Both the position numbers and the translations under genes were made by a program. A DNA stretch of 63,009 nt, the filler included, from Rhabdomonas costata (taxonomy: Eukaryota), in assembly GCA_019059605.1 (NCBI GenBank). It is 49 parts of 49 records of this genome, joined end to end, with 100 filler letters (N's around TTAATTAATTAA, not from the genome) between each part and the next. Parts side by side here need not be neighbours in the genome. Positions count along the whole stretch, not along the records: positions 20,613 to 21,801 come from JAHMHO010024360.1; 48 more parts are not named here. One strand, written 5' to 3'. The stretch's first letter is position 1. The number at the start of each line of letters is the position of its first letter. Shown here in pieces: positions 17,935 through 22,092 of this stretch. Under the pieces are notes generated by a model. The model saw nothing but the letters and a program-made list of their open reading frames with translations. It was not told where the DNA came from and did no database searches.

Positions 17935-20646
17935 NNNNNNNNNNNNNNNNNNNNNNNNNNNNNNNNNNNNNNNNNNNNTTAATTAATTAANNNNNNNNNN
18001 NNNNNNNNNNNNNNNNNNNNNNNNNNNNNNNNNNGGGGTTTTGGGATCGATATAGACATTGGGGTTAATTCCCACATTTTCAGCCGTTCACTGGAGTTAC
18101 ACGGATGGGAGACGTATGGATAGGTAAGTGTATTGTTTTTGCCATGTACGTCTTTGTTCTTTTTTGTTAGTCTTCAGTATTTTGGGGGGTATAGAAATGG
18201 CCAGAGCTGTGTCCACGAGAAACCCCTTGAGGTCGCGCAAGAAGAGCAGCGGGTCCGAGAGGCCTTGCAAGAGGTGTAGGGAGCTGTTTCTGAGTACAAA
18301 TCCGCGGTTAGAATGCCACTGCTTGAATTGCCTACGCGTTGGGGCCATGAGAGGAGCGGATGATGCGCTTCATTGATCTCGTTGTGTGGCCAGGCGAAAA
18401 ACGTTACAGCCGCATGCAACAAAAAAACGCAAAATATGCCTGGTCTTGCAGAAAGGAACGTTCTCTTAAAAGCTTCTTCTGAATCTCGCGCACCGCTACT
18501 TTCCTGTAGAGGGAAAGTGTATATGCTTGCTTTGTACTTTGCTTCTTAGAACTGTGTCAACCAACAGCATTGATACCACGCCTGTGATCTTTTTCCCAAG
18601 AGCGGCGTGGTCTAGATCGTGTTTGCCTATGAAACTGAGAAGGAAACATTTGAAGCACGCAACGTCATTAAAGACCCCATCGCGCATCTCCGCTCTGCAT
18701 TCAGCCCCCGACCTTCACGTTCTCCTTTGACATGGCGGAGCTGCTTCAGGCCTGGCGGGGGAACCTCGGCTCCCCTGCAGTGAAGTCCAGGGTGCGCAGG
18801 CCCGTGGCTGCCTCGGAAATAAAAAACCTGCCTTACATACAGGGAGAGGATTCCACACTCCCTCGCGCACTTGCAGCCCCCACCGAACATCCAGATTCCT
18901 CCTTCGTTGCCCGGCCACCTTTGGAAGCCTTGGAGCTGCTTCCTTGCCAGGGCGCTGAGCACCCCGTCCTGACCTGCCTGGACGTGCTTTCTGGTGAGCC
19001 TTCGGACGGAGACGCCGATCCCTCCAGCAAGGAGCTGAGAGACGAGCTTGGCAGCAACCGCCGCCTTCAGCCCCGGCTGGGTGGGTTTGCACCCAACCCC
19101 TCGACGCATCGCCCGATCAATCTCCCCGTGAAGCCAGGTCACTCTTGCGGGCCAGCCTGTGGCAATGGAATGTCCTCGCCGCAGACCCGCGAGGCTCCCG
19201 GCCAGGGGACTGACCACAACACCNNNNNNNNNNNNNNNNNNNNNNNNNNNNNNNNNNNNNNNNNNNNTTAATTAATTAANNNNNNNNNNNNNNNNNNNNN
19301 NNNNNNNNNNNNNNNNNNNNNNNGGGGTGTGGGGCCTGCAGCCCGGGGACAAGGTGGACTGGCCCTGCGGCCCCCCTGCGGATGTTGGTGGGGGCCCCCC
19401 ACGGCTGGCAAGGCCGGCGCGGCTAGGGCCCCCTCCGCGGCTCTCCAGCTGAGGCCGTGCGGCGGGGGATAGTTGGGGCCCCAGCTGACCACTCGACCGC
19501 GGGGAGGGGGCCACCTCCGAGCCGTCCAGCCTCCTGGTCCGGGAAAAAAAAGGTCAAGGGAAGGGACCGTTGCCAATTCCTTGCTAGTAAAACTGCAGGT
19601 CAACGCCTTCTACAAAAGTTGTTGGCTTCTAATTTTGTGAATATACGTTGAAGGTTCTCACGCGTCCCAGACGTTTCCTTACACCGCTTCCTGCTGCAGA
19701 GCTAACCACACCAGACTGTCCCTCGTGAACGGAAACGAAGATCAGCGGACTATTAACCGGGGCACGGCAGGTACCTGGTCTTGATGAACCAGCAACACAC
19801 CACATTATTACCTCATGGGTACCAATGGCTGCTACTGAGGAGTGTGTGTGTGTGTGGGGGGGCGTGCAACAAACAAGGAAAGAAGCCCTCTGCAACACAG
19901 GAGGCTGCTTGTAGAATGTAATTGAATGGGATTTAGTCATTCGGTCGGCGCTTGGGAGGGAGGGTGCAGTTTTACAGTTGTCCACGAGAGCCATTAAAAC
20001 TCGACACGAACCCCACCACACGTTCTCCCACCACTCGCATCCTCAGCAGCTCCCTCCGACCACGGACTGCCTTTCACCTACTCCACTCGTCCAGTTACAA
20101 CGGTTACTTTCTTGATCTCCTCCGGACCCAGGCTCTCACTCTCCTCCTGGGCCTTCTATTCTACTTGCCATCGGAATTTTCACTTAAAACAGACACAACT
20201 GTCCCTAAGTCAAAGAAGAAAATTTATCCCAGGCTCAAAGCCTCGCTTTGTTCTTTTTCTGACATGAACGACAAAACTTCTACTTCCGGCCCACATCCCC
20301 GCGACCCAACATGCCACATAAGGTAAGTTACATCCCGAAACTCAGAATTTAGTGTTTTACGAGTTTCCAATTGAAGTCCTGGGAACGCTATAAAGTGCCG
20401 CTAAGCCGGTGTGTATGCACACGATATGTTTTAAACGTCTTCACGATAGTGAGGCTAAAAAGCACGTGTTCTGAGTTTACGGTGTAACGTGCTATACATG
20501 TATGTCCACCCCNNNNNNNNNNNNNNNNNNNNNNNNNNNNNNNNNNNNNNNNNNNNTTAATTAATTAANNNNNNNNNNNNNNNNNNNNNNNNNNNNNNNN
20601 NNNNNNNNNNNNGTGTGGGTGTGGGGAGGGATCAGATATCAGATAC

Positions 20647-21517
20647 CGAAGCTCAAGGTGTCAATTGGGATGGCCTTCTGGCGGGCGTAGTTCTGCAGGG
20701 TGCCAGTCAGGAAGGCCTGGGGGAAGAAGAACCCTGGAAGCCAGAACACCCCGGGGGGGCCGTCGGCGTACCACCGAGAGATCATCTCGCACCTCCGGCC
20801 CAGGTCCTCAACCCAGCTCGACAGCGGCCGCAACGAGGGGTAGCCCACCTCAGCCCACGACGCAGGAACCTGTGGGAGAGCGGGCGCATTTTTTGTACTC
20901 GAAAAAGAGAAGAAGACACTAAATTACAACAGAAGCCTGGCCAAATAGGGCCACTTTAGGAACCCGCTCGAAATAGGGGCTACGGACGACAGTGGAAGAG
21001 CAGTACTTATGGCCATACTAGGGCGGAGGTGTGACGGAAGGGAGCATCTGCGGGATCGGGGTTCCCTTCGGGCTTGATTCCCATTGGAGCCCGGAACGGA
21101 AGGTCTAGCCTCGACACGGGAAAGGTTGTCAAGATAGCTGGAAGGGACGGCAACGGCATTCTAATATATACTCCAATCCGCAAAAAAAAAAAAAAACAGA
21201 ACAAGTCATCCCACTGCTAAATGGACAGCCCAGATCGGCCCCGAAAGTGTCGGGCAACAGCCAAATAGAGGACAAGAGGACAGCAAGCGGAAAGAGAAAG
21301 AGAGAAAGCCTCGGAAGAAGCAACAGCCTTCAGGCCCAGTCCAACACGGGGGTGACCAAGGGATGGGACAATGAGTGGGGCGGGATGAAGAGGTTCCTGG
21401 TTGATGTACACGCTGCTGCCCACCAGCTCCAGCTCTGATGAGAGCACGACTTCTCCGGCCAAGGCCCGGGTGAGCTCACGCAGGCTGGTGTGCACCACGG
21501 AGAGCAGGCGGTTGAAG
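20647..21517 (-). CDS. Axonemal dynein heavy chain, C-terminal region (two exons)
   Basis: Exons 21517-21397 and 20869-20647 give [90 protein letters not shown], hallmark DHC C-terminal motifs. Confidence 0.95.
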
Positions 21518-22092
21518 CTGAATAATAAAGCACAAATGACCATGGGCAAAAGGAACCTCAGCTAGAGGCAATCGGAAGAGGGGGAGCATGTGACATCACG
21601 TTGGCATCACCCAACTCACAAAAATTTGGCTGAAGTGTCGGCTATATGTCACTTTCACCGTGCATCGCTTCTTCAACTGCTGCAAAACCAGTGCCCGCTC
21701 TGGAATACCAATGTTTGCATACGCCTGGCTCAGACGGCAGTCGTGGGCAGGATTGCGTGTCAACTCAGCTTATGACCCAACCCGCTGTAACAAAAAACAA
21801 CNNNNNNNNNNNNNNNNNNNNNNNNNNNNNNNNNNNNNNNNNNNNTTAATTAATTAANNNNNNNNNNNNNNNNNNNNNNNNNNNNNNNNNNNNNNNNNNN
21901 NTTGGTGGGTGGGGTGCCGGGGTGGAGAAGTGATTTAGAATTCGAAGGCCGCTAGTGGACTTTCATTGCGCGTATAAAAAGGAGGACCAAATAGGATGTG
22001 GAGGTGGAGGCCGTTTTGAATTGTCCGTCTGTGTGTGAGCAAGGTCACTGTCTGTTTTTTTGGCATGCTTAGCACTTCCTGCTTGTCTGTAG

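Follow-up and report, generated by a model that had tools for sequence, protein, structure and literature searches.

In the assembled sequence of the euglenid Rhabdomonas costata, a flagellar dynein heavy chain gene is interrupted by an intron that starts with GA and ends with AG, and the presence of this boundary in the assembly is confirmed. The reading that we favour, at a probability of roughly 0.6 (the odds among the readings are our own judgement), is that of a U2-type spliceosomal GA-AG intron with strong exon-side pairing, in which a complementarity between the two splice junctions is incidental. GA-AG introns have already been published for euglenids, and the dynein case is one more example of them.

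The window, i.e. the whole stretch of 63,009 nucleotides that was analysed, consists of 49 short contigs with N spacers between them. The gene fragment lies wholly on one 1189-nt contig at window positions 20613-21801 (JAHMHO010024360.1, or G000:C24360, locus L001), and, as the finding is confined to this contig, the remaining window gives no context for the dynein intron. The gene is read from the minus strand, and the protein segment that it specifies belongs to the C-terminal domain of a dynein heavy chain (a match to Pfam Dynein_C); single-headed inner-arm dyneins, e.g. DHC2 and DNAH1, are its best named matches by structure. Elsewhere in the window, an identical stretch of 230 bases was seen at both ends of one contig (16742-16971 and 17705-17934), for which a collapsed tandem repeat and a circular element are the alternatives. 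The dynein contig contains the following elements:

20613..21801, no strand assigned: contig of 1189 nt, the single contig covering the site
21518..21519, minus strand: canonical acceptor AG of the upstream intron
21397..21517, minus strand: upstream exon, 121 nt, Dynein_C positions 76-115, 3' end AACCAG (NQ)
20870..21396, minus strand: intron, 527 nt, GA donor, CAG acceptor, phase 0
20647..20869, minus strand: downstream exon, 223 nt, Dynein_C positions 116-190, 5' start GTT CCT (VP)
20645..20646, minus strand: canonical donor GT of the downstream intron

In-frame joining of the two exons (21517-21397 and 20869-20647) gives SVYINQ|VPASW and leaves an intron that reads GAACCT...CCCACAG. Across this join Pfam Dynein_C positions 115 and 116 are contiguous, without a gap. 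The junction is spanned by 113 of 120 homologs, 112 of which are gap-free from -12 to +9 residues; P43 and W46 are invariant in the alignment, and N40 is retained in 105 sequences. An earlier, sequence-only reading of this DNA had held that the conserved INQ|VPASW sets a 527-nt intron, which the homologs bear out. It had also held that no shift of the boundary yields GT or GC, and this agrees with our result: slides of the boundary between -3 and +1 leave the mRNA identical, and none of the five positions starts with either dinucleotide.

It is quite unlikely that the GA is real but not the main donor, with a cryptic GT (likeliest the one 27 nt upstream) used in its place, the intron retained, or the allele non-functional. 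As many as 63 stop-free GT/GC-AG alternatives exist, the best in-frame GT among them being:

21422..21423, minus strand: in-frame GT donor 27 nt upstream, the best of the rivals; splicing there would delete 9 conserved residues

The donor-matrix score of this site, CTG|GTGGGC, is within the range of the control introns described below (28/83 lower or equal), but U1 pairing of the site is weak (6/83 weaker or equal), and four of the five in-frame GT/GC rivals tested rank 1/83 on the same matrix. The nearest alternatives would shift the length by -5, +5, -9 or +9 residues in the very stretch where the homologs are gap-free, and the GA join outscores the best GT join by 25 units and the best GC join by 18. 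In addition, both exons are open, with a GC3 of 0.87, and they are flanked by canonical splice sites.

For comparison we used introns from dynein contigs of the same genome, for which frame-compatible junctions were scored with up to 20 reference proteins out of 269. Out of 104 junction groups, 17 ambiguous ones were set aside and 3 were duplicates, which left 84 confident introns: 79 GT-AG, 4 GC-AG and one GA-AG, the intron at 20870..21396. The other 83, our controls, all have G at +1 and an AG end, both of which the filter demanded. That none of these 83 is a second GA intron counts against the favoured reading. Five of the set-aside junctions were inspected in sequence, and none forces another non-canonical boundary. 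A probable extra GC-AG intron, after an exon-final AAG, was seen in L055 (G000:C16525), a case set aside for its weak alignment. Among 20 DHHC and 20 IBR loci, a hunt for GA introns gave no convincing case (free-length scan in loci below 1300 nt, fixed 418- and 285-nt scans in all).

Control exons end with G in 78/83 cases and with AG in 56/83. After an exon-final AG, donor positions +3 to +6 vary widely, and 25/83 controls are without both +4T and +5G; all four GC donors follow an exon-final AG. Among the five donors that follow a non-G exon end, three start with GTATG. The U1 snRNA was found in three identical copies (L045, L046 and L047; 42 of 2289 candidates scored), whose 5' end, ACAUACCUGG, is complementary to CAG|GTATGT. 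All three leave the +2 A unpaired, which weighs against a GA-AG intron of this type, and a variant U1 as the explanation of the GA donor was not found among these copies. When position +2 is left out of the genome's donor matrix, the GA donor is mid-range (38/83 controls lower or equal), and so is its predicted pairing with U1 (-7.8 kcal/mol; 46/83 controls weaker or equal). The sequence marks of a U2-type GA-AG intron are present: a GA start and an AG end, an exon-final AG with A at +3, complementarity to U1 and a pyrimidine-rich CAG acceptor. The pyrimidine content of the latter (0.60, against a control median of 0.65) is that of a typical C/T-rich CAG acceptor.

Based on the donor pattern, we suggest that this is an ordinary U2-type spliceosomal intron with A at donor +2, in a genome whose donor signal would lie mainly on the exon side, in an exon-final AG or G. 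The CCAG exon end, together with G+1 and A+3, may grip U1 sufficiently, presumably aided by a contact with U5 loop 1. With its normal C/T-rich CAG acceptor, the intron would be spliced out to leave NQ|VP joined and the dynein intact.

The AG|GAA context is like that of the GA donors of Eurytemora affinis and Oikopleura dioica (PMC7072748), whose U2-type GA-AG introns share with the dynein intron the exon-final AG, the GA followed by A, and the AG acceptor. Unlike there, GA is rare in the dynein set (1/84) and the three U1 copies include no variant. Our survey also resembles the exon-side (U5-type) class of 5' splice sites, in which a G at -1 frees the intronic positions (PMC9803359); non-GT dinucleotides are not treated in the available part of that source, whereas the dynein donor is GA. 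Less favourable to our reading is the low usage rank of human GA donors (PMC6280755).

For R. costata itself, published intron tables (PMC8219788) give whole-file counts of 9461 GT-AG, 634 GC-AG and 185 GA-AG, the last being the largest of seven one-letter-off classes counted (the others reach 82-122). About 90 of 11,418 rows would be GA-AG, if the 5 rows of Table S5 are subtracted from 185 and the remainder is halved, Table S3 repeating Table S2. The rows of Tables S2, S3 and S5 represent the same boundary class among introns that are mostly GT-AG; in contrast to the dynein intron, they are automatic predictions, isoform-redundant and given without junction sequences, so the dynein pairing is not comparable with them. 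Of the 26 rows in Table S5 that have read support and homologs, 5 are GA-AG; of the 7 manually retained cases in Table S6, however, none is, which speaks against the favoured reading.

The same tables bear on the alternative that CAG|GT is the working donor and that the A arose by an error in assembly or amplification, or represents a single allele at a heterozygous site. As the other one-letter-off classes occur at about half the frequency of GA-AG, such noise exists; on the other hand, GA-AG is the commonest of them. A T at +2 would make the donor unremarkable, and coverage of the site amounts to one contig in an assembly of 104,289 contigs, which also weakens the case for a genuine GA-AG intron. 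Where contigs of coding genes overlap (five cases), 8 of 769 bases differ (about 1%), some of them in the interior, and alleles and errors are indistinguishable there. In all of the window's 49 contigs, A or C makes up 86-90% of the final 10 bases toward each 3' end, which is likely a read-tail artefact; these biased tails span about the last 10 nt, whereas the GA site is 405 nt from the nearer end. The donor also carries A at +3, as known GA donors do, against 5/56 of the AG-ending controls, and a further argument against error is the constancy of G+1 and AG in the controls, as far as a filter that required both allows, together with the five inspected junctions. We regard an error or a single allele as unlikely.

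The same codon boundary is occupied in other dynein genes. In L017 (G000:C16119), an outer-arm-type paralog, it carries an AAG|GT donor and an AG acceptor, in the DNAH1-like paralog L006 (C48507) an apparent CAG|GC donor, on a contig that contains the donor side only, and in L002 a CAG acceptor; L006 and L002 may be one gene. The boundary is uninterrupted in L013, L020, L023 and L133. It appears that three dynein paralogs have GT (L017), GC (L006) and GA (L001) at one codon boundary before VP. Since the site is common to paralogs of another dynein class, the intron is either an old one or marks a favoured AG|GT insertion site with repeated gain.

The two junctions of the GA-AG intron are complementary to each other, and this involves three segments:

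21391..21399, minus strand: donor-junction arm CAG|GAACCT (-3 to +6), one arm of a perfect 9-bp inverted repeat
20863..20871, minus strand: acceptor-junction arm AG|GTTCCTG (-2 to +7), reverse complement of the donor arm
21551..21559, minus strand: second 9-nt complement of the donor junction, within the upstream intron; two such copies also occur in 2/83 controls

The arms match at 9/9 positions, so that the donor junction is the exact reverse complement of the acceptor junction, just as the sequence-only reading had noted. It had added that the donor junction differs from a direct copy by a TT/AA flip; the flip is present, but it is no separate fact, since AGG-TT-CCT is a quasi-palindrome and the direct and inverted likenesses are therefore one observation.

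A strict Watson-Crick helix of at least 9 bp across both junctions occurs in 0/83 controls, in 1/6806 permuted donor-acceptor pairs and in 2/6889 pairs with +2 set to A. This exact complementarity coincides with the only non-GY donor of the 84 introns and needs minority codons (GTT, 34/225, and CCT, 29/160), and its rarity under the genome's own null is a point against the favoured reading. With G-U pairs allowed, the helix is less striking (1/83 controls, 109/6806 permuted pairs). The duplex, at -15.1 kcal/mol, is stronger than in all 83 controls at ±8 nt; among permuted pairs, the energy null gives 47/6806 at ±8 nt, 176/6806 at ±10 and 1271/6806 at ±15. The 1189-nt contig contains four perfect 9-bp inverted repeats. 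The motif AGGAACCT was found 3 times in the 63-kb window against 2.14 expected, and its window-wide enrichment was rejected; all three matches (20864-20871, 21391-21398 and 21551-21558) lie in this contig, within a span of less than 700 nt.

The match could be functional, in that donor positions -3 to +6 would pair with acceptor positions -2 to +7, with symmetrical cuts 4 bp apart, and the helix would align the splice sites or rescue the GA donor. In its general form, the proposal is that GA donors of this euglenid are licensed by donor-acceptor pairing, here through an exon-including helix, in which the intron start pairs with the start of the next exon and which synonymous codons would be kept to preserve; our literature search found no description of GA-donor licensing by such an exon-spanning helix. 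Apart from the rarity of the strict match and the duplex energy, this is favoured by a predicted helix probability that, at 37 C, is 0.93-0.98 as long as the exon flanks do not exceed 20 nt. However, with flanks of 25-200 nt the probability drops to 0.00, at 37 as well as at 25 C, and the overall fold of the region is not unusually stable (z = +1.01; 85/100 shuffles are equally stable). With 60-nt flanks, 3/83 ordinary introns have at least 3 expected junction pairs, while the GA intron has 0. The helix would presumably also cover the U1 site and the AG. Both the specific and the general form strike us as very unlikely.

In the controls as a group, junction pairing is not clearly in excess (permutation p 0.08 and 0.42), and three of the four GC donors pair below expectation. 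Pairing as a compensation for weak donors was rejected, as among the controls it does not correlate with the number of base pairs to U1 (rho 0.17 and 0.15; p 0.13 and 0.16). Moreover, the complementarity was picked post hoc from a large scan. Taken together, the softer measures, the loss of the helix with flanks of 25 nt or more, the controls and the post hoc choice suggest that the 9-bp complementarity, real as it is, is probably incidental; it is incompletely explained, given the minority GTT and CCT codons and its coincidence with the sole GA donor. In a GA-AG intron without any role for the helix, the complementarity would arise as both junctions read AG|G-NN-CCT, on the acceptor side through the codons for Val and the invariant Pro. 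Because exact complementarity is rare, we keep a small probability for junction pairing and for an origin by duplication.

As for the latter, DNA templating might have shaped the junctions, either by a 9-bp target-site duplication followed by micro-inversion of the GT, or by a template switch through which an inverted repeat with 8 of 9 matches became perfect and GT was changed to GA. All pairs in the match are Watson-Crick, the +2 A is present in both inverted copies of the donor, and perfection of quasi-palindromes is a known type of mutation (PMC3820800, PMC8604942). However, at least one such inverted copy exists in 8/83 controls, and the arms are 519 nt apart and only 9 bp long; the available part of PMC7954356 gives no usable figure for the distance limit of template switching. 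Beyond the splice consensus no direct repeat is evident, as the in-register direct match of 7 of 9 is equalled by 4/83 controls, such matches being common because both junctions carry AG|G. A search of the genome that skipped simple repeats and common words, in an assembly that may be incomplete, found no second copy of the intron, nor was one found in 309 kb of partly overlapping loci and the window; intron-internal terminal inverted repeats were not found either. Inversion of the intron between its inverted repeats was rejected, as the flipped intron would still start with GA. In L145 (G000:C1126), a 133-nt intron has a normal donor, CAG|GTTCCTG, which consists of the letters of the GA intron's acceptor junction, and such donors consequently arise without duplication. 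With paralog introns at the same boundary, an old intron or repeated gain makes duplication plus inversion, which the sequence-only reading had put forward, unneeded, and we consider a templated origin highly improbable.

The same reading had also proposed that the junctions pair as in structured or intermediate euglenid introns, and this finds no support. The pairing that defines nonconventional introns is formed between the intron's own ends (PMC4770533, PMC11170887), whereas between the 15-nt ends of the dynein intron the pairing energy is 0.0 kcal/mol, against a control median of -3.9, the complementary arms are exonic in part and their helix disappears with the longer flanks. Neither half of the tested Euglena code, N3CDG / CH'GN5-6|R (PMC12501133), is seen at any of the five slides, and 83/83 controls lack it as well. 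The dynein intron is like Euglena nonconventional introns (PMC12501133, PMC4770533, PMC11170887) in its non-GT start and in having CAGG and CCTG near the junctions, but its CAG and CCTG are exonic (Gln and Pro-Ala codons) and it has a canonical CAG end. A nonconventional register through the exonic CAGG and CCTG was rejected, since the cuts that it requires would remove NQVPASW and alter the reading frame. In addition, a nonconventional intron would be expected at a position unshared with conventional ones, whereas here paralogs carry GT and apparent GC donors at the same codon boundary. Of the marks of intermediate introns, one canonical border (the AG end) is present and the end pairing of +4..+6 with -8..-6 is absent. 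The GA-AG intermediate intron of Euglena gracilis fibrillarin (Russell et al. 2005, as quoted in PMC3935182) shares with the dynein intron the AG|GA donor, the AG|G acceptor and a euglenid host; however, its own ends form the fold, in the register of nonconventional introns, while the dynein intron is without end pairing and its complement uses exon bases.

If the dynein intron is a U2-type GA-AG intron, it would be of use in the annotation of euglenid genes and a sign that position +2 is relaxed when the exon ends with AG. The paralogs with GT, GC and GA at one codon boundary constitute a ready-made comparison. Should the exon-spanning helix prove true, it would be a mode of splice-site alignment that differs from the stems formed by intron ends in euglenid nonconventional introns, and might be a step between one intron type and the other. 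If the helix is needed for splicing, it would bear on the interconversion between conventional introns and nonconventional ones in euglenids.
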